A stretch of DNA of 64,000 nucleotides. Source: a virus. Below, piece by piece: positions 1,308 through 39,629 of this stretch. The stretch lies in IMG/VR virus record IMGVR_UViG_3300045988_132388. One strand, 5' to 3'. How positions within the stretch are numbered: position 1 is the stretch's first letter; every line of letters starts with the position of its first letter. The notes under the pieces were generated by a model, which saw only the letters and a program-made list of their open reading frames with translations, was not told the origin of the DNA and ran no database searches. Both the position numbers and the translations under genes were made by a program.

Positions 1308-1700
1308 TTAACGGTTGTCTCCGTTACCGTCAATCAAGCCATGCTGCTGACGCGACTGAAGCTTTTCGAGGTTCTGCCGGCAGACATCTTCAAGACTGAA
1401 ACCAAGCACAGAACATACTCCGGCTATCTGCCACATCACGTCGCCACATTTTTTCTCGATGTCCTTGATTTCTTCCTCAGTCATGCCATGGAAGGTCTGT
1501 GTCAAGATGCGCTCTCCGTTCTTGTCACGATCGCTCGTGCCGATAAACAACTTGCCCTTGCGGATTGCTTTTGCAAGTTTGGAGTGTAGTTCACCCACCT
1601 CTCCGCAGAGATTCATTGTCATGTAGGCGATATTGTTACAAGTAGGCATGCAGGTAGTCATTGCCTTCTGCTGATATTCATTCAAAGTAAGATTATCCAT
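1308..1700 (-). CDS. MazG-like nucleoside triphosphate pyrophosphohydrolase
   Basis: 130 aa. GEVGELHSKLAKAIRKGK and DVMWQIAGVCSVLGFSLEDV...NLEKLQSR resemble the small phage-type MazG helices, as remembered. Confidence 0.7.
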   Translation of the reverse strand: MDNLTLNEYQQKAMTTCMPTCNNIAYMTMNLCGEVGELHSKLAKAIRKGKLFIGTSDRDKNGERILTQTFHGMTEEEIKDIEKKCGDVMWQIAGVCSVLGFSLEDVCRQNLEKLQSRQQHGLIDGNGDNR

Positions 1701-1731
1701 AAACTAATTTGCGTTTTATTCAACTTTATGG

Positions 1732-2631
1732 TTATATATCAAAGTCGGGAATATATTCTCGCATTCTTCCTATTATAATTCCGCGTATCACACCGCACAC
1801 GTATTTTGCGTTGGGATGTGCCTTGCCGGTAGTCTCATTGAAGCGTAGGTCAATGATATGTTTCCACTCATTGAGGTTATAGGTGTAGGCAACCACGGTG
1901 TAAGTGTCGAGAGGTAAAATGCCACGTGCGTCCTGCGGTTGCAGTCCGGCTCTCAGCAGACGGGTATATATCCATGAGCTGAAGCGGCAAGCTGTCCGGT
2001 AGAGGAATCGCTGACGGCGTGTACCAGCATGATACCATTCGGGCTCGGCTATCTGTACTCCTCCTTTCTTCTCCAGGTTACAGTAACGGGTACTTTGCTC
2101 GGCAATAGCGTTGGGGGATGTACGGTTGAGCTCTCGCGAGGTGCTTATCTGTGTGGTGACAACGAACGTCATACGCAAGAGCCACAAAGCTGCATTGCAT
2201 TTGGCTTTCACAGCCCGACGAATAAACTCTTCCTCGTCTATCTGGAACGGCATAAGCATGTTCTTCAACTGCTCTTGCTCGCACAAAAACTGCAGATTGG
2301 TACTAATCCATACCTTGCTGCCCTTTACGGCATAGGATATATAAGGCGAGGCAACCATCAAAGACCATACCAGGGTAGTATGCAATTGCTTCTCGTTAGG
2401 CACGAAGAAATATGCGGTAGCATGGCGAAACATGGAGCGGTGTCCGCTTTCCCAGAAACTCTTGCTACGCAACATGTCGCGCTCATGCAAGAAAGCCTTG
2501 CGTTCTTCGCCATCAAGACCTGGATCGGGCAGCTTGCCCTCACTCTTGTAACATATCCTGCCTACATCGGCGATATGTTGTGCAAAATCTTTCATTGGCC
2601 ACCAAGCCACAGAGGGATCTATAAATTTCAT
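1732..2631 (-). CDS. ThyX-like (FAD-dependent thymidylate synthase family) protein, divergent signature
   Basis: 299 aa. HRSMFRH and TSRELNRTSPNAIAEQSTRYCN resemble the ThyX core and the S-x-RY end of its signature. NRT stands where canonical ThyX has RHR. Confidence 0.6.
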   Translation of the reverse strand: MKFIDPSVAWWPMKDFAQHIADVGRICYKSEGKLPDPGLDGEERKAFLHERDMLRSKSFWESGHRSMFRHATAYFFVPNEKQLHTTLVWSLMVASPYISYAVKGSKVWISTNLQFLCEQEQLKNMLMPFQIDEEEFIRRAVKAKCNAALWLLRMTFVVTTQISTSRELNRTSPNAIAEQSTRYCNLEKKGGVQIAEPEWYHAGTRRQRFLYRTACRFSSWIYTRLLRAGLQPQDARGILPLDTYTVVAYTYNLNEWKHIIDLRFNETTGKAHPNAKYVCGVIRGIIIGRMREYIPDFDI

Positions 2632-2657
2632 ATATATATGTATCTTTAAGTTTTTTA

Positions 2658-3239
2658 TTAATCAGTAAAAGTAGACGAGGTTTCGCCAAAGGGACTGAGC
2701 TTATCCATGACAAATGGTATAGTACAGACATATTGCGCTACTTTATAGCGTAGGTCTTCTTTCGACATACCTCCATTGTTAAATATTCTGCGGTCGAATT
2801 TAATCCCCATAGCTGCATTCAGACGCTCCACGTCCCGCAATATACGTGAGAGCTTGACACCTCTTGCCAAACGTGTTACTGTAGAACTTTTGATATAAAA
2901 GGAATATATCTGAATTTCGGGATGACGATCTTTCATGTCTATCAATCCGACTTCATCCACAATATAGATAGCTATATCTTTCACCTGATCTACAGTAGCC
3001 CAATATTCATAGCCACCATACTGTGTATATGCTAACACCTCATCAGGATCCACATTAAACTCTTTTACAAAATGATGCTCTCTGCCTTCCTGTTCTCCTT
3101 CACGCATAGGACGTGTGGTATAGGAACAGATAATAGGCCAGTCTGTCATTTCTGACATTATCCGAGCTACAGTGTCCTTTCCTGCACCGCTCAGACCGGT
3201 AATTGTTATTAGTTTCATATCAATCTTCTTTATATTCAC
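2658..3239 (-). CDS. guanylate-kinase-family (d)NMP kinase
   Basis: 193 aa. P-loop GLSGAGKDT plus TTRPMREGEQEGREHHFV, the guanylate kinase signature block. Confidence 0.7.
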   Translation of the reverse strand: MNIKKIDMKLITITGLSGAGKDTVARIMSEMTDWPIICSYTTRPMREGEQEGREHHFVKEFNVDPDEVLAYTQYGGYEYWATVDQVKDIAIYIVDEVGLIDMKDRHPEIQIYSFYIKSSTVTRLARGVKLSRILRDVERLNAAMGIKFDRRIFNNGGMSKEDLRYKVAQYVCTIPFVMDKLSPFGETSSTFTD

Positions 3240-4326
3240 TCAAAAGAGCGTTGCCGCAGGTTATTCTATCCTCGTCCTCTTCCACAGAAGGAACAAAAAC
3301 AATCACATCCCAACCTGCCTTGACAAGCGGTTGTTCAAACTGTTTGTAAACATCGTATGTGTAATATCCCTCCTCAGTCTGAATGCCATTACTTATAGCC
3401 TCTTTTGTCTCGTGAATAGGAGTTATCTTTACAATGAACTTTTCCTTATCAAAGAGTTTGTCCAAAACGGCAGGGTCTAATATCGTGTCTTTAGTGACAG
3501 GAAAATTCAACGTGTACTTTCTGCCGACCGGCATAGGTAAATCACGGCAAATCTCTGAGATTTCCTGCAAAGTCAAGGATCGACCACGGAACAAATCATT
3601 ACGCTGCTCTTCATCTGTAGAGTTTATAGACAACTGCAATCCGGCTTCACCTCTAAACTCGTAGTTCTTGAGTTGACAGAACTCACCAAGAATACGTTTC
3701 AGAGTTTTGCTTCCCAAAGAACCCGGAAGCATGGTCGTAAATACAGGATGGATAACATCTGCATCCATGAATACGTTGACATCATCCCTGAGATAGCACA
3801 GCAAATATATCTTGATGTTATTCCAGTTGAATGACGGTTCGCCCATACGAGCCAGATGAAGGTTGAAACGCTTGGTGTGCTGACACTCCGAACGAACGAT
3901 AGCCGATATTACTTCTTCTCGCAGATCGCTAACCTTAGCATTACCGTGGAAACCGACTTTAGGGCAGTCACAGAACTTACATTTCATCGGACATCCTTTT
4001 TGAGTGGAAATAGTAACAACCATCTTATCCTCAAGATCTACCTTCTTATGGGTTACACCATTAATTTCCTTAGTCAATCCAAGGAAGTCCGCCTTTATGT
4101 TGGCTTCCTTGCCATAGTCGCCAACATATAAATATTCAAGACATTTTTTAGTATCACTAAAAATTGCTCCAGTACGAGTCTTAGATTCTTTAATCATAAT
4201 AGAAATACATATCGTTTTATTGATATTTTCAATCTTTAATTCAAATGGACGAGAAGTTATAAAACGAGGTGAGCCACATTCTTTATACGGCACTTCTGTG
4301 ATAGTGATGGCGATAGTGATAGCCAC
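3220..4326 (-). CDS. radical SAM enzyme, RlmN/Cfr-like
   Basis: Has CX3CX2C (CPMKCKFC). ARMGEPSFNW, LQLSINSTDEEQR, KITPIHET and C-terminal ITCGNAL parallel the RlmN/Cfr blocks as remembered. The listed start is a GTG at 4326 inside a DNA repeat; the ATG at 4197 is an alternative start. Confidence 0.7.
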   Translation of the reverse strand: MAITIAITITEVPYKECGSPRFITSRPFELKIENINKTICISIMIKESKTRTGAIFSDTKKCLEYLYVGDYGKEANIKADFLGLTKEINGVTHKKVDLEDKMVVTISTQKGCPMKCKFCDCPKVGFHGNAKVSDLREEVISAIVRSECQHTKRFNLHLARMGEPSFNWNNIKIYLLCYLRDDVNVFMDADVIHPVFTTMLPGSLGSKTLKRILGEFCQLKNYEFRGEAGLQLSINSTDEEQRNDLFRGRSLTLQEISEICRDLPMPVGRKYTLNFPVTKDTILDPAVLDKLFDKEKFIVKITPIHETKEAISNGIQTEEGYYTYDVYKQFEQPLVKAGWDVIVFVPSVEEDEDRITCGNALLSEYKED

Positions 4327-4350: not shown

Positions 4351-4392
4351 AAATAAAAGATGTTGACTGCGGAGTGATTTTCGCGCAATACT

Positions 4393-4480
4393 TGCTCTAA
4401 CCAGCTGAGCTACTTTTCTTCCGAAAAGAAAAGATAGGATTCGAACCTATGACCTCGTGAGACACGTTTCGGAAAAACGT
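4393..4480 (-). ncRNA. tRNA-like gene with permuted half order (anticodon arm, T arm and 3' acceptor strand lie upstream of the 5' acceptor strand and D arm)
   Basis: Minus strand reads ACGTT-TTTCCGA-AACGT, then a 13-nt segment, then ATAGG-TTCGAAT-CCTAT and CTTTTCT, a short loop, then AGAAAAG-TA-GCTC-AGCTGGTTA-GAGC-A. The T arm and D arm are consensus-quality. The two acceptor strands form a closed 8-bp hairpin. Confidence 0.45.
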
Positions 4481-4585: not shown

Positions 4586-5509
4586 TTACAAACCGTTGAC
4601 CTCCGCATATATTCCCTGGAGATTATTAGGGATGATAATGCGCAGAGACGTTATCTCTTTGATTTCTTCCTGTTGCCACTCAACGAACATCGTCTGTAAT
4701 CTCGACATTTCGGTATCGAAATTGTTTCTCTTTTCTTGATGTTCTGCATACTTCTTCTTGTATTCAGCCAATCGCTTGCTGTACTCCTTCTCGGCTTCAA
4801 TGCGGAAACGATGCTCAATACCATTAAACTCAGCTTGCAATGCTCGATATTCGCCCTGAAGCTGAAAGAAGGTCCTGTTCAGTCGGTCGATGGTACCGGG
4901 TTCAACATTATAAGAGAACACGACCATATCGCGGCCTTCACCTTCTATCTCCGTAGGATTAGCCAGACGGTGTGACACTCTCTTCAAGGCCAGAGGCAAC
5001 AGTCCGTCGGGATGAATATACTTACCATACACCGCCATCTTGGTTTTCAACTCAATATAGCGGTTGCGATCCTTTACGTTCAGAATCTCGTTGCCCACCT
5101 TGTCAATATCGGAAACGGGGTCAGGAGCAACCGGCTTTTCAGGAAGAGTAATATTGTGATCGTCAGCCCACACCATGAAGTTGCAGTCTTGCACTGACTT
5201 CAAACCTTTCTCACGTTCATTGATAGCCTCACGCAGCCAACCGATAAGGGCATTGCACTGAGCTACGCGACGTATAACATCGGGAATAGCATCAAGGGTG
5301 TCAAGAGGGGCTTCCACAATCGACGGCTGTGTATCCCCAAGCAGACGTGCGCTCTTGGTGTAAAGACGTAAGGTATCAGCCTGCGCTAAGATGCGCTGCG
5401 CATACTCTTTAGCCATGTTTGCAACATGGTTAGCAGATGTGGCTGTCAAACCTTCTTTCGCAAAAAATACTTTGTTCATATATATCGTTTTTTGTTCGTA
5501 TTTTAACAT
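4586..5509 (-). CDS. hypothetical protein with coiled-coil C-terminus
   Basis: 307-aa ORF; an alternative ATG at 5479 gives MNKVFFAKEG. No family recognised. Confidence 0.65.
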   Translation of the reverse strand: MLKYEQKTIYMNKVFFAKEGLTATSANHVANMAKEYAQRILAQADTLRLYTKSARLLGDTQPSIVEAPLDTLDAIPDVIRRVAQCNALIGWLREAINEREKGLKSVQDCNFMVWADDHNITLPEKPVAPDPVSDIDKVGNEILNVKDRNRYIELKTKMAVYGKYIHPDGLLPLALKRVSHRLANPTEIEGEGRDMVVFSYNVEPGTIDRLNRTFFQLQGEYRALQAEFNGIEHRFRIEAEKEYSKRLAEYKKKYAEHQEKRNNFDTEMSRLQTMFVEWQQEEIKEITSLRIIIPNNLQGIYAEVNGL

Positions 5510-5673: not shown

Positions 5674-6777
5674 TCAATTCGTTCTTCCATATATTTCCCG
5701 CAGTTCTTCACGTGTAAGGAAAATATCACTCTTATGACACATTTTTATGAAAGTGTTTTCTGTTACTTTCGGATAATTGGCAAACTGCGGCCACATTCTT
5801 CTTAACTCCGACTCACGACGAGCATTAGAATCTGGTGGACGGAAACGTGATATACGTCTCCACATATCCAGTCCTGCCACATGGTCAATGCTATATAAAG
5901 AAATGCCACACTTCACCCACTCTTCATAATTACCCATAATGTCAATACCTTTTGCTTCTATCTTGCTCACCAAACGCTGAGCCTTGAGGTAAACAATATC
6001 GGGAGTATCATCCTCCCAAGAAAATTTGCGGTATCCAGGATTACAACCCGAAGCACCATTCGACACGTGCGAAAAGGTTCGATGATAACATGGCGCTGGT
6101 GTCAGTTCCACTTCGCTTACATTAAGCCCCTTGTACGCCACGGCACCTTTATTTATATATATATGCCCAGGATCATCCCACGAGGCAAAGCGTACACGAC
6201 CAATATTGCCACACTGTCTGTCGAGCATAATACCGAAAGCAGCATACTCTTTTAGTAGGGCTTTAAATTGTTCCTTATGTCGGTCCGGATAAGCAAGACG
6301 TACTAAGCCGAAACATCCCATACCACTACACGAACGCATCAATAAGGCTATCTCAGGGCGGAACTGGCAGACCATGCGGATATTCTCGAAATTGCTCAGT
6401 TGAGCATTATCTGCCAAGTCAATGTCTATGGCGAGCCATCCGGTATGCTGCTTCAGATGGGTTTCACGGCGCGACACAGGGGCGATATATTTGCTTCCGT
6501 CACGACGAGTACATTCGTCGTTGCGTATCTCAAAGAGTCCGCTCAATGTAGCACCAGGTAATCGCTTCTTGGTTTTAATATACTCAGGCATTTTCTTTGC
6601 CTTGGCTCCATACTCCTGGCGCAGGGCGCGAAGATGCTCCACATACGGCTTCCACCTTTCCGTCAGACAAAACTCACGGATAGACATCTGCTGAATACAC
6701 TCCCCTGTCTCTTGGTCTACATATCGACCTACATTGTCAAGTGCGTCAGAATATATGGAACATATCTCGTCGAACAT
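5674..6777 (-). CDS. primase-like protein (VirE/BT4734 N-terminal-domain type), tentative
   Basis: 367 aa. GWLAIDIDL (acidic DxD-like block) and GRVRFASWD resemble the Bacteroides VirE_N/BT4734 family as remembered. Confidence 0.45.
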   Translation of the reverse strand: MFDEICSIYSDALDNVGRYVDQETGECIQQMSIREFCLTERWKPYVEHLRALRQEYGAKAKKMPEYIKTKKRLPGATLSGLFEIRNDECTRRDGSKYIAPVSRRETHLKQHTGWLAIDIDLADNAQLSNFENIRMVCQFRPEIALLMRSCSGMGCFGLVRLAYPDRHKEQFKALLKEYAAFGIMLDRQCGNIGRVRFASWDDPGHIYINKGAVAYKGLNVSEVELTPAPCYHRTFSHVSNGASGCNPGYRKFSWEDDTPDIVYLKAQRLVSKIEAKGIDIMGNYEEWVKCGISLYSIDHVAGLDMWRRISRFRPPDSNARRESELRRMWPQFANYPKVTENTFIKMCHKSDIFLTREELREIYGRTN

Positions 6778-9556: not shown

Positions 9557-10462
9557 ATGGAACTACGACATCTACGATCTTTTGTTTATGTGGCGGAAAC
9601 TCTTTCATTTTCTGTCGCCGCCGACCGATGTTGCGTCACGCAATCGGCAATCAGTCAACACATCAAAACCCTGGAGGAAGAGCTGGGATGCAAACTACTA
9701 ATTCGTACCTCGCACGACATTACGCTTACAGAATACGGCGAAGCTCTTTTGCCTCGCGCAAAGGACATACTAAAGCAGACCGCCGACTGTAAAGAACATA
9801 TACATGCACTAAACAACTGCATGACCGGTGAGTTGCGTATTGGTGTTGGTTCGTTTATCGCTCCATATATCCGCGAGGCTGCAATCATTTTTATGGAGCG
9901 TTACCCTAACGTAAGGCTTAATGCTGAAATGACAAAAGCCACCAGCCTGAACCATCTGTTACGCAACCACGAACTCGACATAGCGTTCACGATGAACACA
10001 GCATATAAGAATGAGGGTATTGAATCTATACCGTGCATACCCTTCCATATCTACGCCATAATGCGCAACACCCATCCATTGGCAAAACTGCCGGAGGTGT
10101 CATATAAGGATATGCTCTGCCACAGCGTTATTATGCCGGCTGTGGGGGAACGTGTGTTCAATACCTTTCAGCAATATATGCGACACGACCTTACGAAGCT
10201 CAACATCAAGTGTATAGTAAGTGATCCTGACGAAGACCTTGCTATCGTGGAGGAAAAACAAAGCATAACTTTTATGCCTAAGCTTTATCTGAAGAACCAC
10301 CCTACCCTCGTTGCCAAACCTATTGCTGAACTAAAGACAGCCCTTATGAGTAATGCTCACTATATGCAGGACGTGCCTCTCAAACGCTCCGCACAGATAT
10401 TCCTTGACATTATAAGACAAGAAGCAATACCATATATCCAGGAATTGGAGAAAACCTATTGA
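9557..10462 (+). CDS. LysR-family transcriptional regulator
   Basis: 301 aa. N-terminal MELRHLRSFVYVAETLSFSVAADRCCVTQSAISQHIKTLEEELGCKLLIR is the classic LysR HTH. The length fits a LysR substrate-binding domain. Confidence 0.9.
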   Translation: MELRHLRSFVYVAETLSFSVAADRCCVTQSAISQHIKTLEEELGCKLLIRTSHDITLTEYGEALLPRAKDILKQTADCKEHIHALNNCMTGELRIGVGSFIAPYIREAAIIFMERYPNVRLNAEMTKATSLNHLLRNHELDIAFTMNTAYKNEGIESIPCIPFHIYAIMRNTHPLAKLPEVSYKDMLCHSVIMPAVGERVFNTFQQYMRHDLTKLNIKCIVSDPDEDLAIVEEKQSITFMPKLYLKNHPTLVAKPIAELKTALMSNAHYMQDVPLKRSAQIFLDIIRQEAIPYIQELEKTY

Positions 10463-19264: not shown

Positions 19265-20320
19265 ATGAAAATAGGACTCATAGACGTGGACGGACGACAC
19301 GGCAAAAAGAAATGGGGAGCTACGATATACCCTAACGTGGCTCTCGGCAAGATTGCACGTTGGCACACGAAGTGGGGCGACAAGGTTGAATGGGCTCAGC
19401 CTACCAACCTTTTCGACAGGCATCATTACGACATACTGTATGCCAGCAAGGTGTTCAACTTTTCGCCCGACATCGACTTTCGACAGTTCTCATTCGGCCG
19501 ACTGGAGAAGGGTGGCACTGGCTATGACATCTATAAGCGCCTGCCTGACGAGATAGACCGACTGCAACCGCTATATGAGTTGTTCCCATGGGTACCAAAG
19601 AACCATGCTTACGGCAAACTGACCGAAGGCTGTCCCAACAAGTGTTTCTGGTGTGTAGTGCCAAAGAAGGAAGGACTCATACGCCCGTACATGGATATAG
19701 AGGAGATAGCCATCGAGGGCAGAACGCACGTTGTGCTGATGGACAACAACATTCTTGCGGCGGGCGACTATGCCAAGAAGCAGCTTCAGAAGATAATCGA
19801 CCTCGGTCTGCATATCGACTTCAATCAGGCGATGGACGCACGGCTTGTCACTCCCGAATATGCCGAGCTGTTAGGCAAGGTGAAATGGATAGACTCCCGC
19901 ATCCGCTTTGGTTGCGACACCACCGCACAGATTGCAGAATGTGAGCGAGCCATGCAACTTATCAATGCGGCAGGATTCCGTGGCGAATATTTCCTATATA
20001 CCATGATAGGCGGAAAGAACGACTTTCGAGAATGTTTCCACCGTCTGCACTACTGGTGGGAGCGACTGCAACGCTTCCGCAAGAACCATGAAGGCAGAGC
20101 CGTGTATGCCTACGCACAACCATACCGCGACCCTACAAATCCCAATCACGCCATCCCCGAATGGCAGAAGGATATGGCCCGATGGTGCAACAAGCGAATG
20201 ATATTCTACGCCACCGATTTCAAGGACTTCATGCCAAGAAAAGGATTCAGGTGCGAGGAATATCTGAGGGAATACGAAGTGAACGGAAACGGAATCGAGG
20301 CATCTACTGCCTGTAGGTGA
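19265..20320 (+). CDS. radical SAM protein (second, unrelated to 3220-4326)
   Basis: 351 aa. CX3CX2C motif CPNKCFWC follows a ~120-aa N-terminal domain. Confidence 0.7.
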   Translation: MKIGLIDVDGRHGKKKWGATIYPNVALGKIARWHTKWGDKVEWAQPTNLFDRHHYDILYASKVFNFSPDIDFRQFSFGRLEKGGTGYDIYKRLPDEIDRLQPLYELFPWVPKNHAYGKLTEGCPNKCFWCVVPKKEGLIRPYMDIEEIAIEGRTHVVLMDNNILAAGDYAKKQLQKIIDLGLHIDFNQAMDARLVTPEYAELLGKVKWIDSRIRFGCDTTAQIAECERAMQLINAAGFRGEYFLYTMIGGKNDFRECFHRLHYWWERLQRFRKNHEGRAVYAYAQPYRDPTNPNHAIPEWQKDMARWCNKRMIFYATDFKDFMPRKGFRCEEYLREYEVNGNGIEASTACR

Positions 20321-20814: not shown

Positions 20815-21846
20815 ATGGAGTTAAACATTACGCTTTCTGAAGCATTGGAGCGAGCTTCGGAAGGACTGCGAAAGAAGATGCTTCACTCAGTGGAGCTACT
20901 GCAAAAAGCAGAGAGGATTGCTCTGAACTATGATGCCGAGAATGGATATTACTTAGCGTTTAGTGGTGGAAAGGACTCTCAAACTCTTTTCCACATAACT
21001 CAGTTAGCTGGAGTTAAATTCCACGGTCACATGAGTCTAACAAGCATTGATCCACCCGAAGTGATACGTTTCGCAAAGAAGAACTATCCCGAAGTGGAAC
21101 TGCTAAAGCCTGGCAAATCAATCTTCCAGCACGCTGTAGAAAATCAAATTCTGCCCACTATGCGTGTGCGTTGGTGTTGCGCTGAATACAAGGAGACGGC
21201 AGGTGCTGGCAAGGTTACGCTAATCGGCATCCGCAAGGCAGAGAGCACACGCCGAGCCAAGCGAAATGAGGTGGAAATAAACAACCGAAAGTTTAGCGGC
21301 GATCTTGACGGTCTCGACGAATACCGACAGGAGCAGAAGGCTAAACGTGCTCGTCGCAAATCTAAAGAGCAAGGTGTGAACATCACAAATGCTGATGAAG
21401 AAAAGACGTTAGGTTGCATCCACGGCAAAGAGAGTCTGCTGATCTCGCCCATCATCTATTGGACGGAAAAGGACGTATGGGAGTTCCTCAACGATGTAGT
21501 GAGGGTTCCACATTGCTCGCTTTACGATGAGGGTTGGCATCGCATAGGTTGCATAGGCTGCCCAATGTCGTCTGCAAAGCAGAAGCGCATCGAGAACGAA
21601 CGTTATCCGCACGTAAAACGAAACTGGATTAAGGCGATTAAAGCCATCCGAAACGGGGGGGGTATTCAAAAAAGAATATATCTGGTGGAACATCCGGAAG
21701 GACTGGATGCCTCTCAGAAATGTCAGAGGATTGCTCAGGACGCAGGCGGCTACATCAAGCATTCAGACCCAAAACACTGGATGGGGAGGAAGAATACGAG
21801 GAGCAGCTATGCCAACACCAGGGGTTTCATCCAGCTCCTCTTCTGA
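20815..21846 (+). CDS. PAPS-reductase/DndC-like PP-loop ATPase family protein
   Basis: PP-loop YLAFSGGKDSQ. A G8 tract at 21655-21662 precedes the point where the next frame stays open to 21979. Confidence 0.75.
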   Translation: MELNITLSEALERASEGLRKKMLHSVELLQKAERIALNYDAENGYYLAFSGGKDSQTLFHITQLAGVKFHGHMSLTSIDPPEVIRFAKKNYPEVELLKPGKSIFQHAVENQILPTMRVRWCCAEYKETAGAGKVTLIGIRKAESTRRAKRNEVEINNRKFSGDLDGLDEYRQEQKAKRARRKSKEQGVNITNADEEKTLGCIHGKESLLISPIIYWTEKDVWEFLNDVVRVPHCSLYDEGWHRIGCIGCPMSSAKQKRIENERYPHVKRNWIKAIKAIRNGGGIQKRIYLVEHPEGLDASQKCQRIAQDAGGYIKHSDPKHWMGRKNTRSSYANTRGFIQLLF

Positions 21847-22035: not shown

Positions 22036-22629
22036 ATGGCTAAGGACTGGGTGGGCGGCTCGGCTGCTGTATTCAAGACATTAGGCGCAAGCAACCATAC
22101 GGATGCGGATCGGCAGCGGGAGGATTACTATGCCACTGAGCCGAAAGCGACGGAATGGCTGTGCAAGCTGGAGCGATTTGAGGGAAGGATATTGGAACCT
22201 TCGTGTGGCGAGGGTCACATGAGCGAGGTGCTGAAAGCAGCAGGGTATGAGGTGGTGAGCCGCGACCTTGTGGATAGAGGTTACGGTGAGGTGGCCGACT
22301 TCCTCGCAATAGACAACTTGGCGTGGAACGGAAACATCGTCACCAATCCGCCCTACAAATTCGCGCAGCAGTTTGTGGAGAAGGCCCTAAGCATCATCCC
22401 CGAAGGAAAGAAGGTGGCGATGTTCCTGAAACTGACTTTCCTTGAAGGCAAGGCGCGACGCGCTCTCTTCCGTTCTACTCCCCCCATTCGTGTTTGGGTA
22501 AGTTCGTCACGACTGAAATGTGCTCCCAACGGAGATTTCAATGCTATTGTTGGCAGCGCAGCGGCATACGCATGGTTCGTATGGGAGAAAGGATATAAAG
22601 GCGAGACAACTGTGAAATGGTTTAACTGA
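22036..22629 (+). CDS. DNA N6-adenine methyltransferase (NPPY type)
   Basis: Motif I ILEPSCGEGHM and motif IV IVTNPPYKF. Confidence 0.75.
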   Translation: MAKDWVGGSAAVFKTLGASNHTDADRQREDYYATEPKATEWLCKLERFEGRILEPSCGEGHMSEVLKAAGYEVVSRDLVDRGYGEVADFLAIDNLAWNGNIVTNPPYKFAQQFVEKALSIIPEGKKVAMFLKLTFLEGKARRALFRSTPPIRVWVSSSRLKCAPNGDFNAIVGSAAAYAWFVWEKGYKGETTVKWFN

Positions 22630-22651: not shown

Positions 22652-23422
22652 ATGATAGAACTGAATAAGATATATAATGAGGACTGCCTGGAAGGGATGA
22701 AACGGATTCCTGACGGGAGCGTGGATTGCATTGTGTGCGATTTGCCGTATGAAGTTCTGAACAAAGGCAATGAAAAAGTACGATGGGATAACATTATCCC
22801 GATAAAGCCTCTATTCAAGGAGTACTGGCGAATAGCGAAAACTAACGCTCCCATTATTCTCTTCGGTCAAGGAATGTTTACGGCACAGCTAATGATGGCA
22901 GAGCCAGACACATGGCGATATAATCTAATTTGGCAAAAAGACAGACCAACAGGCTTTCTTAATGCGAAGCGTATGCCTATGCGAAGCCATGAGGATATTG
23001 CTGTGTTCTACCGTGCGTTACCTACATACAATCCACAAATGAGACAGGGTTCCCCCTCTCATTCACGAGGACATAAACAAGGAAAAGCAAGGGGTAATGC
23101 TTGTTATGGCAACTATAATATTGAGACCTACTCAAAAGAAGCAACAACAGAGAAATATCCTATATCTGTATTGTTATTCGACAAAGAAAAGAATCTTGAT
23201 ATGCACCCCACCCAAAAACCTGTCGCTCTTATTCAGTATCTCATCCGTACCTACTCCAACGAGGGCGACACCATCTTGGACAACTGTATGGGCAGCGGCA
23301 CCACCGCCATTGCTTGTATAAAAGAGAAGCGCAACTTCATCGGCTTCGAGCTCAACAAGGAGTATTACGACAAAGCTTGCAAGCGCATCAAACTGGAGCT
23401 GGCGCAACCCACTCTCTTCTGA
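22652..23422 (+). CDS. DNA methyltransferase, N4/N6 beta class
   Basis: DLPY (DPPY-like) at the N-terminus. TILDNCMGSGTTAIAC...FIGFELNKEYY (AdoMet motif) at the C-terminus. Confidence 0.85.
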   Translation: MIELNKIYNEDCLEGMKRIPDGSVDCIVCDLPYEVLNKGNEKVRWDNIIPIKPLFKEYWRIAKTNAPIILFGQGMFTAQLMMAEPDTWRYNLIWQKDRPTGFLNAKRMPMRSHEDIAVFYRALPTYNPQMRQGSPSHSRGHKQGKARGNACYGNYNIETYSKEATTEKYPISVLLFDKEKNLDMHPTQKPVALIQYLIRTYSNEGDTILDNCMGSGTTAIACIKEKRNFIGFELNKEYYDKACKRIKLELAQPTLF

Positions 23423-27141: not shown

Positions 27142-27837
27142 TTATTTTGTTTGCTTTTCTTTATCTTCGTCTGCAAGTATGCTCTCGACATACCTCACAA
27201 CTCTTTCATATTCTCTGCCCGACTTCTCGCCATCGGCATAAGCTTTTTTTATCAGTTCTTCGCCTGTGCCATAGAAACAGCCTACTTTCCATTTTTTATT
27301 AGAACGAGTCCATGTGAAATACCGTCCACTGCTCCAGAAATTCTTAAAGACGATGTAGTCTGTATCGTTATAGACCGTCGCATAGCCACAGACCACCGCA
27401 TTGCCATATACCTCTGCATTGCCACAGATTCTTACATTGCCATGTACCTCTGCAATGCCATAGATCATTGCGTTGCCATAGACCTCTGCATTGCCATGTA
27501 CCTCTGCAATGCCATAGATCCTTGCGTTGCCATAGACCTTTGCATAGTTATAGACATTTGCGTTACCATAGACACATGCGTTGCCATAGACCTCTGCATT
27601 GCCATAGACCTCTGCATTGCCATAGATCCCTGCGTTGCCATAGACCTTTGCATGGATATAGACCTTTGCGTTACCATAGACCCATGCGCTGCCAACGTGT
27701 GAAAGGTTTTCCTCCTTCTCTATCCAACCGCCAAGTTCTCCGGCTTTAACAGAGCCAAAATCCTTTAATGCTTTAATTCTATACAATCTGTGACCTACAT
27801 GTACAATAAATTCAGAGGTTAATTCGTACTTTTTCAT
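27142..27837 (-). CDS. hexapeptide tandem-repeat protein (about 18 x xVYGNA)
   Basis: 231 aa. A unique N-terminal domain, 18 consecutive 6-residue units (beta-helix-like periodicity) and a unique C-terminal domain. Confidence 0.75.
   Translation of the reverse strand: MKKYELTSEFIVHVGHRLYRIKALKDFGSVKAGELGGWIEKEENLSHVGSAWVYGNAKVYIHAKVYGNAGIYGNAEVYGNAEVYGNACVYGNANVYNYAKVYGNARIYGIAEVHGNAEVYGNAMIYGIAEVHGNVRICGNAEVYGNAVVCGYATVYNDTDYIVFKNFWSSGRYFTWTRSNKKWKVGCFYGTGEELIKKAYADGEKSGREYERVVRYVESILADEDKEKQTK
27360..27695. repeat. in-frame 18-nt tandem repeat array (about 18 units)
   Basis: Units such as gccatagacctctgcatt repeat head-to-tail with point variants inside CDS 27142-27837. Confidence 0.8.
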
Positions 27838-28359: not shown

Positions 28360-29544
28360 TCATGGCTGCACCTCCTCAAATTTTCCGTCGATTAACTGAT
28401 ACCATGTGTCAGACTTGATTCTCTCTCCGTCCACGAACTCGGTTTTAACACAGATTGGGATATTATATCTCTTAGTTTCATCCCATCTCCATTCGGAGAG
28501 CGTTATCCATGAGCCAACCTTTGCTTTTGCTATAGAATTATTGCCAGCACACATAATAACAGAATCTTCTCCTGTGCTATCAATCTTAGCAGAGTCGCCT
28601 GATGAGCCAATCTTAGCAGAGTCGCCTGATGAGCCAATCTGAGCAAAGTCGCCTGATGAGCCAATCTGAGCAGAGTCGCCCGATGAGCCAATCTGAGCAG
28701 AGTCGCCCGATGAACCAATCTTAGCATAGTCGCCCGATGAGCCAATCTGAGCAGAGTAGCCCGATGAGCTAATCTGAGCAGAGTCGCCCGATGAACCAAT
28801 CTTAGCATAGTCGCCCGATGAACCAATCTTAGCATAGTCGCCTGATGAGCCAATCTTAGCAGAGTAGCCCGATGAGCCAATCTGAGCAGAGTAACCTGAT
28901 GAACCAATCTGAGCAGAGTCGCCCGATGAGCCAATCTTAGCAAAGGTGCCTGATGAACCTATCTGAGCAGAGTCGCCCGATGAGTCAATCTGAGCATAGT
29001 AACCTGATGAACCTATCTGAGCAGAGTCGCCCGATGAGTCAATCTGAGCATAGTAACCTGATGAACCTATCTGAGCAGAGTCGCCCGATGAGTCAATCTG
29101 AGCATAGTAACCCGATGAACCAATCTTAGCAGAGTTGCCTGATGAGCCAATCTTAACAGAGGCGTCTGATGAGCCAATCTGAGCATAGTCGCCTGATGAG
29201 CCAATCTGTTTTCTTCTTTCTTTGTTGTCGTTCAACGCACCATCTGCCTTAATTTTAGATGGTGATGTAATATCTTTCAGCCACTCGATACCTATATTAA
29301 TGATGTCAGTCAGCTTCAACTCAGCCTTAATCTTGATACAAGAAGAGCATACCTTTGTTGAATCTTCTTCTTCTTCAATCTTACCAGACTGTTCTACCTC
29401 TGCAAAGCGAGAGTTGAGCATATCGTAGTAGTCCCATATTTCCATTGGAAACTTGCAAGCATAGAAACCTCGTTTACAACACTCGATTTCCCCGTTCATT
29501 TCGTATTCTTTTCCGACTTCGTATTGAAAGTCTCGACATTTCAA
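28360..29544 (-). CDS. nonapeptide tandem-repeat protein (about 24 x IGSSGDxAx) with Cys-rich N-terminal domain
   Basis: 394 aa. N-terminal CCKRGFYACKFPMEIWDYY block, 24 consecutive 9-residue units and a unique C-terminal domain. Confidence 0.75.
   Translation of the reverse strand: MKCRDFQYEVGKEYEMNGEIECCKRGFYACKFPMEIWDYYDMLNSRFAEVEQSGKIEEEEDSTKVCSSCIKIKAELKLTDIINIGIEWLKDITSPSKIKADGALNDNKERRKQIGSSGDYAQIGSSDASVKIGSSGNSAKIGSSGYYAQIDSSGDSAQIGSSGYYAQIDSSGDSAQIGSSGYYAQIDSSGDSAQIGSSGTFAKIGSSGDSAQIGSSGYSAQIGSSGYSAKIGSSGDYAKIGSSGDYAKIGSSGDSAQISSSGYSAQIGSSGDYAKIGSSGDSAQIGSSGDSAQIGSSGDFAQIGSSGDSAKIGSSGDSAKIDSTGEDSVIMCAGNNSIAKAKVGSWITLSEWRWDETKRYNIPICVKTEFVDGERIKSDTWYQLIDGKFEEVQP
28580..29210. repeat. 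in-frame 27-nt tandem repeat array (about 24 units)
   Basis: Units such as ccaatctgagcagagtcgcccgatgag repeat head-to-tail with variants inside CDS 28360-29544. Confidence 0.8.
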
Positions 29545-32431: not shown

Positions 32432-33613
32432 TTAGTCGTTAATTACGACGGGCATTATGAGCGCAAGCACTGATGGCGATGGCTCATCGGCGGTAAGCAC
32501 GGCAGCACGGGTCTTGTCGGAGAGCTCCATGCGGATGGCGTCTCCCGGCACCGCACTTATCGTTGAGCGGAGGTGAACACCGTTGAAGGCTATATAGAAG
32601 CCATCCTCGCATTGGGAGTTATGAAGCAGCACCTGGTCGGATGCCGAAAGTGAAAAGTCTGCATTGTCGGCAGAGATATTGAAGAACATACCGTCCTTGC
32701 GCAAGATGACGCTATTGTCCGCTTCAGAAGCAAACAGTCCTACTCTCTTCAGGATAGCAAGCATTTCCCTTTTGTCGAAGACGACAAAGAACGGATTGCC
32801 ACGCGGAATTACAGCGTTATAGTTGGGGTATCTGCTCTCCAACGCCTTGCAGATATACTCTATGTTGCCGGAAGTAAAGCGGATAATGTGGTTGTCGCTC
32901 TCAACGGTTATCTCCTCGCAATTCTGGAAGGCCGCAAAAGGTTTGAAATAACTCATGTGGAGGATTATCTTCTCCGGCTTGCCACTACGGAAGAAGTCGT
33001 AACCGTTCTTTGCGGGGTCGTTGCTAAGAGTTTGTTTGAAGAGCCTATGACCGTCGGAACCCACGAAATATACAGAAGAAAGATCGTCGGAAACATCAAT
33101 ACACAGACTGCTCAATGCCGGACGGATTTCGTCGTTTGCCAAGAAGTCCGTCACTTTTGACAGGACGTCGCCGAACAATGCCATCGGCAGGACTATCTTT
33201 ATGGCATCTTCGCCTGGTGTAGTAATCTGTGGAAACTCGTCGGCATCCAGCCATGTGAGCTGTGCTTTACCGGTCTTCACGTTGTCGTCAGCACCATGAC
33301 AATACTCTACCGCGAGCGAATGGTCGTCGTTGAAGGTGAAGTTTACGGTGCAGTCCGGCAATGTGGCGAGGAACGGCATGATGAACTTGATAGGCAGCAC
33401 GACGGACTTGAATGTGCCTTCCACGATACTCAGAGGGGCAGGGATGGTAAGACGTGAGTCCGATGTTGCCGAGGTGAAATAGAACCCACCGTCAGCATGC
33501 TGCGTCAGAAGCACATTGTCAAGAATGGCAATGGTATTTTTGCTTGCGATACAACGTGCTGACTTCTGAAAAGCGATGTTGAGCTCGCATGATGATTTAG
33601 CTTGAAGTTTCAT
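32432..33613 (-). CDS. dnaN: DNA polymerase III beta sliding clamp-like protein
   Basis: 393 aa. N-terminus SKNTIAILDNVLLTQHADGGFYFTSATSDSRLTI follows the DnaN pattern (piL.nvll....l.l.atD.e..i). The size is right for a three-domain clamp. Confidence 0.65.
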   Translation of the reverse strand: MKLQAKSSCELNIAFQKSARCIASKNTIAILDNVLLTQHADGGFYFTSATSDSRLTIPAPLSIVEGTFKSVVLPIKFIMPFLATLPDCTVNFTFNDDHSLAVEYCHGADDNVKTGKAQLTWLDADEFPQITTPGEDAIKIVLPMALFGDVLSKVTDFLANDEIRPALSSLCIDVSDDLSSVYFVGSDGHRLFKQTLSNDPAKNGYDFFRSGKPEKIILHMSYFKPFAAFQNCEEITVESDNHIIRFTSGNIEYICKALESRYPNYNAVIPRGNPFFVVFDKREMLAILKRVGLFASEADNSVILRKDGMFFNISADNADFSLSASDQVLLHNSQCEDGFYIAFNGVHLRSTISAVPGDAIRMELSDKTRAAVLTADEPSPSVLALIMPVVIND

Positions 33614-35939: not shown

Positions 35940-38900
35940 TTAGAATGGCAAATCCTTGTCTTTTATCTGACTGACGGTATTTGCCGCATTATTAATCTCA
36001 CTGCTTCCGCCATAACGTTTCCCCTGCTTGCGCGACATAAAGTTCTCCCAACGGGTTTGTTCTTCGTCGGTAAGGGAAACTATATTACCATTGTCATCAC
36101 GATATGGCAGTGGATCGGGTTGCTCCGCGTAAGCACGGGCAATGCGCTTCAGCTCTTTATAGTCTTTCGGTATTTCGTCCTTGCCGGGGCGGTAGAAGAA
36201 GAACACATGCTTAGAGGTCTGAAGATAACGAATACATTTCATTTCTACCGTCTTGTCATTCTCCCACTCTCGACCTGAGAAGTACTCCTGTGTAACCCAC
36301 GCCTGTAACTTGAAACACTTGCGGTGCTTGTCAGCATCGTTCTCGAAAAGATGCTTAGGGTTGCAGGTGATACCCATATTCTCGCAATAGTCGTATATCT
36401 TCTTCTTGAAGGTGGCTCGGCTATACTCCTTCGATTTACCCTCGGAGGCATCAGCCCACTCACGCATAAACTCGTTAAACATATCGTCGGTACAGATAGG
36501 CACTCCATAAACCTCGTTGCGAGAAAAGAAAAACTCGAAATAGTTCACGATAGTCTCGGTGAGCTTCTGTACCATCTGACGGCGACGCACATTCTCCTGT
36601 GGTGCAATGGCAAAGGTATGGTAGCGCATGAGGAACTGAACTGCCAAGGCACAGATATAGATAATCTGATTGCGGTCAGCATCGGACAGGTCTTCGGGGT
36701 TCTTGCTAAAGCCTTTCAGTATATCGCTCATCATGCGTGCCGGTTGTCGTTTTTGCGGATTCTCACGTGCAAAACGGTTTGAGAAACTAACCAGCGGAAA
36801 ACGACCTATCGTAGACGAAGCATCATTAGACAATGGATAGTTTGATGTAATAACGTGTAGAGGCGAATCCTTCATCTTAAAGGAGATAGCATCACTATTC
36901 TTCCGCTCGGCATTCGTTCCACCAGTTATCTGAACATAGAAGTAATCCAACGGAAAACTTCTCGGTTTGTCTTCCCAATGAACCACTCTGAACTTGCCCG
37001 GATATTTTATAATGTCCGTCAAAACAAAACGAGCATCACCAATATCCTTAAAGTGTCGCATATCGACTCTGAACACATTGACGGCAGTACCGACGAAAGT
37101 ATTTATAACCCATGACTTGCCGGAGCCACCTGTTGCCTGTTTCTCGTCAGGAATAGAGTCTTCCAACAAGTAAGGACAGACATTCTCCATTTTATCCCAA
37201 GTGCGGAAACACACACGACCGATACCCGAAATCATATTCACAAAATGGCTGTTGATAACCGTCATATCGTCCACAGACATCTTTTGCTTGTTGCGAATAA
37301 CATCCTGCTCCTGTTCCCACAAAGTGTTGGCGCAACCACGAATGATACGCAATACCGGCCATAGGTCCTGCTCACGCTTACCGTTCCAATCCACTTGCCA
37401 ACGATATGTCTGCGCCCACTCAGCCAGTTCTGCTTTCATCTGTCCTATCTCTATGATAGAGAACACCGGCAAACCGTCCTCGTTGCGCATAGCCTCCTTG
37501 GCTTCAATAGACTTCTTCTTGTCAATATATTCCTGACTCTCCCTTATGGAGAATGGAGGGCTGAACACGCGCATCGTGAAGTCGTATGGCTTACGAGCCA
37601 AAGCCGGAATAAAAAAGTTGATATTGTCGTAATCGACAGGCAAAATCATATCGGGAGTAATCTTCAGAGCTACATTACGGAAATAGAAATATTCCGTCTT
37701 GGCATCAAAAGCGTCGGCAAAATCAATCACCATAGATAGCAAACCGCCCGCGCTCTTTTCAGAAAAAGTCTTGTCTACCATATTGGCACAATCCGACATA
37801 AGGCGTCGCTCGGTGTCACTGTGTCGCCAACACTGCTCGATAAAGTCAAGTAACAAATCTTTCATTGCCTGAATAATGCTACTACTGACGATATACTCAA
37901 CAAAGCAACGGTCGAGGTGTATATACTGTCCTACGAGGTCGGTACTCTCCGGATCCACCATGCGGTAATATCCGTGCGCACTCATAAAAAGCCACACCTT
38001 AGAGGGCGACACCTTACATGTAGGCGGTTTCGGTTTTCCACTACGAGGGTCGCGTGGATATTCTATCTCGAATGGGTTAGTATTCTTGGCTCCACGCAAA
38101 CGGCTATATAACGGTATGCGAATGTCATGGTCGAACTTAAAGTTATCCTCGTCAGTCATGTGGTAGGCAATCATATAGTCACGCACACTACGAGGCGAAC
38201 AACCATATAGCCATTGCCACCGTTGGTTATAACGTGAGCGGAACGCTTCGGGTAGCATTGCATAACAGAGATCACCGAACTTAGTGGCTATCGCTCCACA
38301 ATCTCGCTGCGAGGCGATATCATTCGGATAGAGCATTACAATACGCTCGGCAAAGCGATTCATTTTTTGATACTGGATAGGCTTAAAATCGATAGGGTCC
38401 AACTTCCACTTTCCATGGTCGATATACCAGAAATTGTTTCGCCCTATAGAGAATGCCACATGATACCAACAGTTGTATTGAAAATGCTGGTCTTCTGCCT
38501 TGTCGATACGCAAGGAGCGCATAGCATAATACACGCTCAATGCGTCTTCGGGTGTGCGACAAAACACGATATTACGAGCCTTTATCTCGTTAACGGGTAT
38601 CTTGACTTCTATTCTCCTAAACGTGCCTTTCGGTTCTCCATCCTTTGTCTCGTTTTCTCTCCAGTCCTCATAGGTCTGTGTGTATCTTTCTTCTGGTTCA
38701 AACTTTTCAATGGCTGCATGAACGGCAGTCGTTGAGCTATCACGATGATCCATAGCATAAGTGAACACCCTGTCGCCCATAAGCCAACGGCTCACCTTGC
38801 GTACACTGTGCTCTTCGCAAGTAGAGAACACTATCGGTTCGCCTTTCATTGCCGGACGGAACAGGCAGCCGCAAGAACCTTGTGGTGCTATCACGTCGGT

Positions 38901-39629
38901 GGCGAAACATACAAATAAAGGATTCCATGGTGTGCCGTAGATTATCTCGCTCACCTGTTTACCCTCACGCACCACATGGGGCAGCGTTACGCTATCTACA
39001 GCATAGATGCGGAAATCCCTGTTGAGCATGTCCGTAGTAAAGTCCTTGCCGAAACCAAAGGTAGGCAGACCTTTTACCAGTGTCACCTCACAGCCCAACG
39101 CAGCAAGTTCCTGTGGGTTGAAGTCCATCTTCGGCATGAACGAGAAGGTATCTATAGTCTGTGGCGCAATAGTACGATAATCCATCTTGCCAAAGAGCAT
39201 AGGGAAAGCAGCTCTCGTATCTTCCTTGTCGCCATAAACCCTTACCGCCAAATCCCGGCAAAGACGCAACAGACTGGCTCCGTGCATCGGCAAGTTGCGC
39301 ATGGCTGCATAAAGTTCCAATGCGCCATACCCCTGCTTGCCAGTCTTCGTACACTTCCAATGTACCGCACCATGCTTTGCCTGGGTATCATCATCAACCC
39401 CTACCCCATTATACAGGCCACCACGCTCATCATTATAAATGATGAAATGTGGCGTTTGTCCAGCATTCGCACTGCCATCAAACTGTAGGGCGTCATCCTC
39501 CGCACCCTTCTTCTGGCAGAAGGGACAGAAGCACGCTGTCTGACCTTGGAAGTGTTGCTCGTCGGCTGGCTTCACAAGGAAAGTCAGGTCGATATTGGCA
39601 AGACGGTTTATAATTGGATGGAATTGCAT
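35940..39629 (-). CDS. bifunctional DNA primase/helicase (Zn finger + TOPRIM-like + P-loop NTPase)
   Basis: 1229 aa. CFCPFCQKKG near the N-terminus. IVFCRTPEDALSV and VMLYPNDIASQRDCG are TOPRIM-like. Walker A ATGGSGKSW lies in the C-terminal third, as in P4-alpha/D5-type proteins. Confidence 0.6.
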   Translation of the reverse strand: MQFHPIINRLANIDLTFLVKPADEQHFQGQTACFCPFCQKKGAEDDALQFDGSANAGQTPHFIIYNDERGGLYNGVGVDDDTQAKHGAVHWKCTKTGKQGYGALELYAAMRNLPMHGASLLRLCRDLAVRVYGDKEDTRAAFPMLFGKMDYRTIAPQTIDTFSFMPKMDFNPQELAALGCEVTLVKGLPTFGFGKDFTTDMLNRDFRIYAVDSVTLPHVVREGKQVSEIIYGTPWNPLFVCFATDVIAPQGSCGCLFRPAMKGEPIVFSTCEEHSVRKVSRWLMGDRVFTYAMDHRDSSTTAVHAAIEKFEPEERYTQTYEDWRENETKDGEPKGTFRRIEVKIPVNEIKARNIVFCRTPEDALSVYYAMRSLRIDKAEDQHFQYNCWYHVAFSIGRNNFWYIDHGKWKLDPIDFKPIQYQKMNRFAERIVMLYPNDIASQRDCGAIATKFGDLCYAMLPEAFRSRYNQRWQWLYGCSPRSVRDYMIAYHMTDEDNFKFDHDIRIPLYSRLRGAKNTNPFEIEYPRDPRSGKPKPPTCKVSPSKVWLFMSAHGYYRMVDPESTDLVGQYIHLDRCFVEYIVSSSIIQAMKDLLLDFIEQCWRHSDTERRLMSDCANMVDKTFSEKSAGGLLSMVIDFADAFDAKTEYFYFRNVALKITPDMILPVDYDNINFFIPALARKPYDFTMRVFSPPFSIRESQEYIDKKKSIEAKEAMRNEDGLPVFSIIEIGQMKAELAEWAQTYRWQVDWNGKREQDLWPVLRIIRGCANTLWEQEQDVIRNKQKMSVDDMTVINSHFVNMISGIGRVCFRTWDKMENVCPYLLEDSIPDEKQATGGSGKSWVINTFVGTAVNVFRVDMRHFKDIGDARFVLTDIIKYPGKFRVVHWEDKPRSFPLDYFYVQITGGTNAERKNSDAISFKMKDSPLHVITSNYPLSNDASSTIGRFPLVSFSNRFARENPQKRQPARMMSDILKGFSKNPEDLSDADRNQIIYICALAVQFLMRYHTFAIAPQENVRRRQMVQKLTETIVNYFEFFFSRNEVYGVPICTDDMFNEFMREWADASEGKSKEYSRATFKKKIYDYCENMGITCNPKHLFENDADKHRKCFKLQAWVTQEYFSGREWENDKTVEMKCIRYLQTSKHVFFFYRPGKDEIPKDYKELKRIARAYAEQPDPLPYRDDNGNIVSLTDEEQTRWENFMSRKQGKRYGGSSEINNAANTVSQIKDKDLPF

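Follow-up and report, generated by a model that had tools for sequence, protein, structure and literature searches.

The virus record IMGVR_UViG_3300045988_132388 was analysed over a stretch of 64,000 nt, here called the window, and all coordinates refer to this whole stretch, position 1 being its first letter. Our subject is a group of four neighbouring genes at one end of the window, which encode a radical S-adenosylmethionine (SAM) protein, a guanylate-kinase-fold kinase, a ThyX-like protein and a MazG-like protein. A reading made from the sequence alone (below: the sequence-only reading) had taken this group for a nucleotide-metabolism cassette and a candidate pathway for the modification of DNA or RNA bases. 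A megablast search returned no near-identical known phage. The window looks like DNA of a tailed phage, with genes for a primase, a holin, a sliding clamp, an NAD-dependent ligase, a ParA-type ATPase (AAA_31/CbiA), a DNA methylase and a phosphoadenosine-phosphosulfate (PAPS) reductase-like protein, and its relatives are gut metagenome phages with affinities to the Bacteroidota. The four genes and the elements upstream of them are:

3220..4197, (-) strand: RlmN/Cfr-like radical SAM protein, 325 aa (the mechanical open reading frame, ORF, extends to 4326), with the cluster motif CPMKCKFC, an extra Cys in CDC, an invariant C174 and an invariant C-terminal RITCGNAL
2658..3218, (-) strand: guanylate-kinase-fold nucleoside monophosphate (NMP) kinase, 186 aa from ATG, 193 aa if the GTG at 3239 is used
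1732..2631, (-) strand: ThyX-like protein of the crAss-like-phage type, 299 aa
1308..1700, (-) strand: MazG-like nucleoside triphosphate (NTP) pyrophosphatase, small and all-alpha, 130 aa
4364..4475, (-) strand: Y-RNA-like (YrlA) element, core 4394-4448, a tRNA mimic with permuted T-arm/D-arm
4586..5509, (-) strand: orf307, without family assignment in profile searches
5674..6777, (-) strand: primase-like protein with a BT4734-like N-terminal domain and PriCT-2, the conserved upstream anchor of the locus

The four ORFs are co-oriented and tightly packed, as had been described, with spacers of 1 nt (TGA-T-ATG, between the radical SAM and kinase genes), 26 nt and 31 nt. Transcription runs from the radical SAM gene through the kinase and ThyX-like genes to the MazG-like gene; on the coding strand the cassette thus begins with the radical SAM gene rather than ending in it. 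The start of this gene is likely the ATG at 4197, because its homologues are about 323 aa long and their alignments begin there. For the kinase, the ATG at 3218, one base past the radical SAM stop codon, is the most likely start. The GC content is 41% in the radical SAM and kinase genes (2658-4197; 36-42% at third codon positions, GC3) versus 47-49% in the ThyX-like and MazG-like genes (1308-2631; GC3 55-57%). As a sign of recent insertion this difference was rejected as too weak to use. Scans for sigma-70 promoters, for terminators and for the Bacteroides -7 motif all stayed at chance level and were uninformative.

Nucleotide genes and their conservation in sister phages

The family assignments that the sequence-only reading gave to the three nucleotide genes were borne out by matches in Pfam, PHROG and the PDB. 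The MazG-like protein matches Pfam MazG (PF03819, E 5.5e-9, 36.6 bits versus a cut-off of 22) and phrog_229 (E 4.5e-24), and the acidic metal-helix motifs of the type ExxE...ExxD are visible in its sequence as GEVGEL and EKKCGD. The kinase matches Pfam Guanylate_kin (E 1e-8, 35.5 bits versus a cut-off of 25.2), phrog_1815 (E 3e-27) and guanylate kinases in the PDB (E 1.6e-7 to 1e-3); it has a P-loop, GLSGAGKDT, and an NMP-binding S-Y-TTRPMREGE motif (YTTRPMREGE). Its score against the guanylate kinase equivalog TIGR03263 is below the cut-off (43.6 bits versus 160), and its N-terminal half alone aligns to the Pfam model.

The ThyX-like protein is well supported by Pfam Thy1 (PF02511, E 4e-22, 79.4 bits versus a cut-off of 24.8) and belongs to PHROG 85. 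Its structural model has a mean predicted local distance difference test (pLDDT) of 86, and the top 50 Foldseek matches listed for it are all ThyX or PolB (E about 1e-6); in the PDB, the highest-ranking match is PolB, which methylates UMP/dUMP and has an altered specificity. The ThyX signature RHRxxxxxxxS(x)RY is altered: in the corresponding segment, RTSPNAIAEQSTRY, RHR is replaced by RTS, which is invariant in 28 homologues. R166, R170, S180, R182 and Y183, equivalent to R74, R78, S88, R90 and Y91, are retained together with the DARG...LP and LR motifs. The proteins annotated as 'flavin-dependent thymidylate synthase' in crAss-like phages align to it over about 93% of its length with 27-35% identity. 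In crAssphage, gp28 has RVS at the RHR position, and genes for a deoxynucleoside monophosphate (dNMP) kinase and a dUTPase are close by.

Gene order was surveyed in those 80 IMG/VR loci whose ThyX-like gene matches best (60-76% identity). The primase, kinase and ThyX-like genes follow each other in this order in all 80. The slot after the ThyX-like gene is occupied by MazG in 45 loci and by a dUTPase in ten, while 25 have neither. A radical SAM gene was found in three of the 80, L004 to L006, which were already known as the closest relatives of the radical SAM protein in the window. Two loci without it illustrate the variation: L192 has primase, orf307, YrlA-like RNA, kinase, ThyX-like gene and MazG, and L194 has primase, kinase, ThyX-like gene and dUTPase. 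Where present, the radical SAM gene varies in position: in the window it follows orf307 and the YrlA-like RNA, in L008 it precedes both, and L004 to L007 have it together with no orf307 match and no YrlA-like motif. Thus, kinase and ThyX-like gene occur as a pair throughout this phage lineage, and two variable inserts occur between primase and kinase, one consisting of orf307 with the Y-RNA-like element and the other of the radical SAM gene. The four components are not inherited as one unit across the related phages. Together with the exchange of MazG for dUTPase or its absence, and with the predominant occurrence of the radical SAM gene in other surroundings, this speaks against the proposal of a single base-modification pathway made up of all four genes.

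As another task of the radical SAM protein, it had been suggested that it modifies the neighbouring tRNA-like RNA. The Rfam YrlA model (RF02553) matches at 4364-4475 (-) over its full length with 33.6 bits (E 2e-4, gathering score 69). The match shows the permuted T-arm and D-arm typical of the YrlA tRNA mimic, and these arms are conserved in sister phages. The element also occurs in L008/L036/L162, in L192, where orf307 is 88.6% identical to that of the window, and in L214, always just downstream of orf307 and with or without a radical SAM gene. It co-varies with orf307 and is missing from the radical SAM-positive L004 to L007, so that the suggestion is not supported; ARAGORN found no tRNA in the window, and the link of the radical SAM protein to a 'tRNA-like RNA' was rejected. 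Orf307 and the YrlA-like RNA are a separate accessory unit. They are kept as a pair in the sister phages L008, L192 and L214. No Ro/Rsr homologue was seen among the window ORFs scanned.

The radical SAM protein and its family

The radical SAM protein matches Pfam Radical_SAM with E 2.7e-5, just under the gathering score, and belongs to PHROG 24834 (E 2.7e-98), catalogued as 'unknown function'. The best NCBIfam model is that of RlmN (TIGR00048, E 7e-11), with 41.7 bits versus a cut-off of 290; against the Cfr models NF000424 and TIGR04432 it scores 16-18 bits versus cut-offs of 530-550. In a single-sequence search the similarity to RlmN is confined to the surroundings of the cluster motif, whereas a family profile spans the entire catalytic domain of the RlmN and Cfr structures (E 3e-22 to 3e-18). 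The AlphaFold model (pLDDT 87, predicted template modelling score 0.87) has RlmN-type proteins as its sole strong Foldseek neighbours in the PDB (E 7.5e-11 to about 1e-8), with 6fz6 at E 7.5e-11 and Escherichia coli RlmN at about 1e-9, at TM-scores of about 0.6. Its BFVD matches are phage 'COG0820' proteins and a radical SAM protein of Pseudomonas phage 201phi2-1.

The CX3CX2C motif for the [4Fe-4S] cluster and SAM is present within an SSQxGC context, where ISTQKGCPMKCKFC of the phage protein aligns to SSQVGCALECKFC of RlmN, and its three cysteines are invariant in both family alignments made. In the family-profile alignment, C314 of ITCGNAL coincides with the methyl-carrier Cys of RlmN (E. 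coli Cys355, in CGQL), RITCGNAL standing opposite AACGQL in 4pl1 and 6fz6. The Cys-Gly pair at C314 is invariant in relatives as distant as 24% identity. These results confirm the parallel to RlmN and Cfr, including the C-terminal Cys, that had been drawn from the sequence. RlmN needs a second cysteine, Cys118, for product release, since it resolves the covalent intermediate. No equivalent of it was found: Thr62 is at that position, invariant in 27 family members, and in the alignment of the wider family the position is likewise without a conserved Cys. Therefore, the canonical two-cysteine mechanism cannot run unchanged. The N-terminal accessory RNA-recognition domain of RlmN (helix-hairpin-helix-like) was not found either, as the profile alignments begin at RlmN residue ~88-105; the phage protein is about 60 aa shorter than RlmN ahead of the cluster motif, and in its model the N-terminus consists of short beta-strands and, at residues 39-50, a loop predicted with low confidence. 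Members of the family are acidic, their median isoelectric point (pI) being 5.75. Placement by profile and structure thus upheld RlmN and Cfr as nearest relatives, but not membership of either family, given scores under the cut-offs and the lack of Cys118 and of the N-terminal domain. Judged by these comparisons, the protein is a member of a sister family of RlmN/Cfr, built on an RlmN-like scaffold and being neither RlmN nor Cfr. Two other family members, both 36-39% identical to the protein of the window, look catalytically degenerate by their sequences: P0140 has neither CX3CX2C nor the C-terminal Cys, and P0144 is without the C-terminal Cys.

Homologues are numerous: a protein search gave 6764 matches at E <=1e-3, clustering at 50% identity gave 644 clusters, and separate searches gave matches in 336 IMG/VR stretches and in 525 GTDB species. 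Conservation is strong: 26 homologues sampled from both homologue searches are 58-81% identical to the protein of the window. We surveyed the neighbourhoods of 163 loci, dereplicated into 84 groups (>=85% identity), counting genes within 5 kb. C5 DNA methylases were found in 14 of the 84 groups and N6/N4 DNA methylases in nine. Eight groups have any gene of NAD salvage, and five each have a flavoprotein of the FMN reductase type (each time directly downstream), RtcB or a Thg1-like gene. The partners in the window are infrequent, with a guanylate-kinase-fold kinase in three groups and a ThyX-like gene or MazG in two each (4/84 altogether). Bacteroides phage Versailles is the closest relative in culture (50.6% identity); there the gene lies among ParB-like, recombination and resolvase genes, and the trio of kinase, ThyX-like gene and MazG is absent. 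In L031 a separate guanylate-kinase-fold gene is followed by a 62%-identical radical SAM gene and a YfbR-like 5'-deoxynucleotidase, which is the sole independent hint of a link between the radical SAM protein and nucleotides. The homologue encoded at 7001-8542 of L031 (P0274) is extended at its C-terminus by about 190 aa that have no Pfam match.

In Clostridia and Bacilli metagenome-assembled genomes (MAGs; L112 to L118 and L168, proteins P0128, P0129 and P0135), membrane-tethered Firmicutes proteins of about 815 aa join a QueT-family energy-coupling factor (ECF) S-component, a radical SAM domain of about 40% identity and a PNP_UDP_1 nucleosidase domain. By its sequence the latter looks like the type of a methylthioadenosine/S-adenosylhomocysteine (MTA/SAH) nucleosidase and would then clear SAH and 5'-deoxyadenosine, both by-products of RlmN-type chemistry. 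Further fusions involve an isochorismatase and a flavin reductase-type or pyridine-nucleotide-disulphide oxidoreductase domain. In MAGs of gut Alphaproteobacteria the gene is embedded in clusters of nicotinate phosphoribosyltransferase (NAPRTase), a PncA-like isochorismatase, radical SAM protein, NadE, DUF5662 and a Nudix/NrtR winged-helix protein; such apparent NAD-salvage clusters were found in L136, L142, L145, L147, L149 and L166, and also in L120 and L140, and no NadD was found in them. Several phages show the order radical SAM gene, FMN reductase, NAD synthase.

Possible functions of the locus

We favour, with some reservation, a composite locus, in which a dTMP-supply module stands beside an accessory radical SAM enzyme of the RlmN/Cfr sister family. 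The MazG-like protein would take the role that a dUTPase has in sister phages, hydrolysing dUTP to dUMP and sanitising the pool, the ThyX-like protein would methylate dUMP to dTMP and the guanylate-kinase-fold kinase would phosphorylate dTMP to the diphosphate. Such a supply line is the simplest reading because the substrate-binding positions are retained in the ThyX-like protein and because MazG and dUTPase interchange. The radical SAM gene would have been inserted between primase and kinase as an accessory gene, and its product may act independently of the thymidylate module. It would bind the [4Fe-4S] cluster through CX3CX2C and, with C314, probably perform RlmN-type chemistry on an sp2 carbon, with flavoproteins as possible reductants. 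As its substrate, a free nucleotide, a dinucleotide or a similar small heteroaromatic compound seems more likely than rRNA. We lean towards a small molecule because of the acidic family, the ECF and nucleosidase fusions, the NAD-salvage clusters, the FMN reductase directly downstream and the arrangement in L031. Gene identities, homology, the state of the motifs and the synteny counts are shown directly by the analysis, whereas the dUMP substrate, the kinase specificity, the role of MazG and the chemistry and substrate class of the radical SAM protein are what we infer from it.

Several observations weigh against this composite view. The ThyX-like protein has T and S in place of His79 and Arg80 of RHR and scores 54.5 against the equivalog TIGR02170 versus a cut-off of 87.9, so that its thymidylate synthase activity is an assumption. 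The kinase appears, in a by-eye alignment, to have Ala in place of the guanine-contacting Glu. The one-base junction between the radical SAM and kinase genes and their common lower GC content leave some room for a functional coupling of the two within this lineage, and their adjacency recurs once in an unrelated lineage (L031). As to the substrate of the radical SAM protein, acidic pI and fusions are indirect arguments; DNA methyltransferases are its most frequent neighbours, which fits a DNA substrate, and the RtcB and Thg1-like neighbours fit tRNA. We therefore regard RNA as a serious rival substrate, in view of the closest homologues and the tRNA-repair neighbours, and lean less to DNA, for which the methylase neighbours speak.

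Within the composite reading a more specific role can be put forward tentatively. The radical SAM family could be a 'single-cysteine' class A branch that acts on a free adenine nucleotide or cofactor, or on another imported heteroaromatic compound, and not on RNA; in phages it might serve auxiliary metabolism or counter-defence, with the phage flavin reductase as electron donor. Intermediates of the NAD pathway are candidate substrates because of the repeated NAPRTase, PncA-like, NadE and NrtR contexts.

Rather doubtful, in our view, is an RlmN/Cfr-like RNA methylase that modifies A2503 of the host 23S rRNA, A37 of tRNA or the phage tRNA mimic and thereby, for example, resists defences that target ribosomes or anticodons. 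RlmN and Cfr are indeed the nearest structures and profiles, the methyl-carrier Cys is conserved, genes of tRNA repair occur among the neighbours, and in the window the YrlA-like mimic lies about 170 nt upstream of the radical SAM gene. But the invariant Thr in place of Cys118, the missing N-terminal domain, the low score against the RlmN model and the acidic character of the family speak against it, the YrlA-like RNA follows orf307, and the fusions to a membrane ECF S-component and the placement in NAD salvage point elsewhere.

It is unlikely that kinase and ThyX-like protein, joined by MazG or dUTPase but independently of the radical SAM protein, make a non-thymine pyrimidine nucleotide, so that thymidine or cytidine would be replaced across this lineage and the crAss-like phages. 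The change from RHR to R(T/V)S is invariant, the score lies below the ThyX equivalog cut-off, PolB with its altered specificity is the best PDB match, and a dedicated kinase is always adjacent; all of this could be understood in such terms. Yet most of the dUMP-binding Arg, Ser and Tyr positions are kept, and a dUTPase in the third slot suits an ordinary supply of dUMP. The literature searched contained no account of DNA modification in these phages, and searches on phage RlmN-like enzymes, on C-methyladenine in phage DNA and on crAss-like ThyX or DNA modification returned nothing relevant. The phiPDS1 paper mentions a radical SAM gene only in a speculative way.

We give distinctly little credit to the idea of one pathway to a non-canonical (deoxy)nucleotide or DNA base, in which MazG would clear the canonical dNTP, the ThyX-like protein and the kinase would build the nucleotide and the radical SAM protein would C-methylate the nucleotide or the DNA. 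The tight co-oriented packing with its one-base junction, the non-canonical active-site motif of the ThyX-like protein, the recurrence of kinase, radical SAM gene and 5'-nucleotidase in the unrelated L031 and the DNA methyltransferases at the top of the neighbour list are compatible with it. Against it, 77 of the 80 best-matching sister loci, all with kinase and ThyX-like gene, have no radical SAM gene, MazG is replaceable or missing, and most radical SAM groups have none of the three partners within 5 kb. Moreover, we detected in the window neither a transglycosylase nor a DNA glycosyltransferase nor a DNA polymerase of the phage's own, and scans of the window revealed no gene for a 5-hydroxymethyldeoxyuridine (5-hmdU) kinase/PPK, a glycosyl- or aminoacyl-transferase, a glycosylase fold or a DNA kinase.

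Very improbable, finally, is a non-orthologous analogue of queuine lyase or another 7-deazaguanine salvage enzyme supplying preQ1 for tRNA or DNA modification: the fusions of QueT, radical SAM and nucleosidase mirror the queK-qrtT-queL operon of C. difficile, but their nucleosidase domain may simply remove radical SAM by-products, and a queuine-lyase identity was rejected since the solved enzyme (6p78, 230 aa) is a different, generically similar radical SAM protein (Foldseek rank 19, E 6e-3, TMq 0.40; no phmmer match), no preQ1 riboswitch was detected on L029 and L030, the contigs with fusion genes, and neither tRNA-guanine transglycosylase (TGT) or DpdA nor QueC, QueD or QueE was found in the window.

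Summarizing, the cassette seems to be largely ordinary phage nucleotide metabolism; adjacency alone would suggest an exotic DNA-modification pathway, which the comparative data do not back. The radical SAM protein is, by its sequence, a putative variant within the RlmN/Cfr kind that comes from a large, uncharacterised and mostly phage-borne family. It deserves notice for keeping the methyl-carrier Cys of RlmN without the release Cys, for its bacterial fusions to a transporter component and a nucleosidase and for its embedding in NAD salvage. Identification of its substrate would establish both a chemistry new to radical SAM enzymes and an auxiliary function new to gut phages. The change from RHR to R(T/V)S, common to the ThyX-like protein of the window and those of crAss-like phages, merits attention as well.

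Other genes of the window and comparison with known systems

A second, unrelated radical-SAM-like ORF with the motif CPNKCFWC lies at 19265-20320 (+) (Pfam Radical_SAM, E 1.5e-3). The PAPS-reductase-like PP-loop protein is encoded 0.5 kb downstream of it at 20815-21846 (+) (E 8e-17), and an ORF with an NPPY motif (22036-22629) and a Pfam-supported N6/N4 DNA methylase (22652-23422) follow. Together these genes may form a separate island for DNA modification. A full-length regulator of the LysR type (HTH_1 and LysR_substrate), unusual for a phage, is found at 9557-10462 (+). Two ORFs, at 27142-27837 (-) and 28360-29499 (-), are repetitive; one of the two has (V/I)YGNAxVYGNA repeats of the beta-solenoid type with a weak match to the YdcK repeat, the other about 25 tandem nonapeptides resembling IGSSGDSAQ. 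Further genes encode the sliding clamp (32432-33613), an Rv2179c-like exonuclease (40200-40859), the ParA-type ATPase (46205-47071) and the NAD-dependent ligase (48877-50406), which has a hydrophobic C-terminal tail. No DNA polymerase was recognised among the window ORFs. An ORF of 1229 aa (35940-39629) has no Pfam match and was called a primase-helicase by eye only.

Phages have cassettes for thymidine hypermodification or dNTP replacement, with a thymidylate synthase homologue, a dNMP kinase and a dNTPase in the SPO1/T4 type and with radical SAM isomerases in clusters of the M6/ViI type. The locus described here resembles them in its gene combination, as a thymidylate synthase homologue, an NMP kinase and an NTP pyrophosphatase stand next to each other and a radical SAM gene adjoins them. 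In the window, however, the thymidylate synthase homologue is of the ThyX and not the ThyA type, and the radical SAM protein is of the RlmN type and dispensable in sister phages.

With RlmN and Cfr, the class A radical SAM methyltransferases of adenine C2 and C8 in RNA (COG0820), the radical SAM protein shares the predicted fold and the core motifs SxQxGC-x3-C-x2-C, (R/G)MGEPxxN and the C-terminal Cys in CG(Q/N)L. It differs from them in the Thr for Cys118, in a short beta-rich segment instead of the helical N-terminal RNA-recognition domain, in its acidity and in scores far under the model cut-offs. Its contexts are also unlike theirs, namely accessory regions of phages, NAD-salvage clusters and transporter fusions. 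QueL (PDB 6p78) resembles the family of the window in being a radical SAM protein that is associated in bacteria with an ECF S-component and a nucleosidase, but it belongs to another radical SAM family, has 230 aa and shares generic fold similarity alone.

The ThyX-like proteins of crAss-like phages (e.g. Carjivirus communis gp28) have the same extended architecture of about 290-300 aa as the protein of the window and the common motif TQISTSRELNR(T/V)SPN.IAE.STRY, and the crAss region has genes for a dNMP kinase and a dUTPase. The window represents another phage lineage, in which a guanylate-kinase-fold kinase gene adjoins the ThyX-like gene directly and MazG stands in third place instead of Dut. 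The ThyX fold is shared, furthermore, with canonical ThyX (T. maritima, M. tuberculosis, PBCV-1) and with the UMP/dUMP C5-methylase PolB; from these the protein of the window is set apart by T and S for H79 and R80 of RHR, by about 80 aa of extra sequence and by TM-scores of 0.35-0.55.

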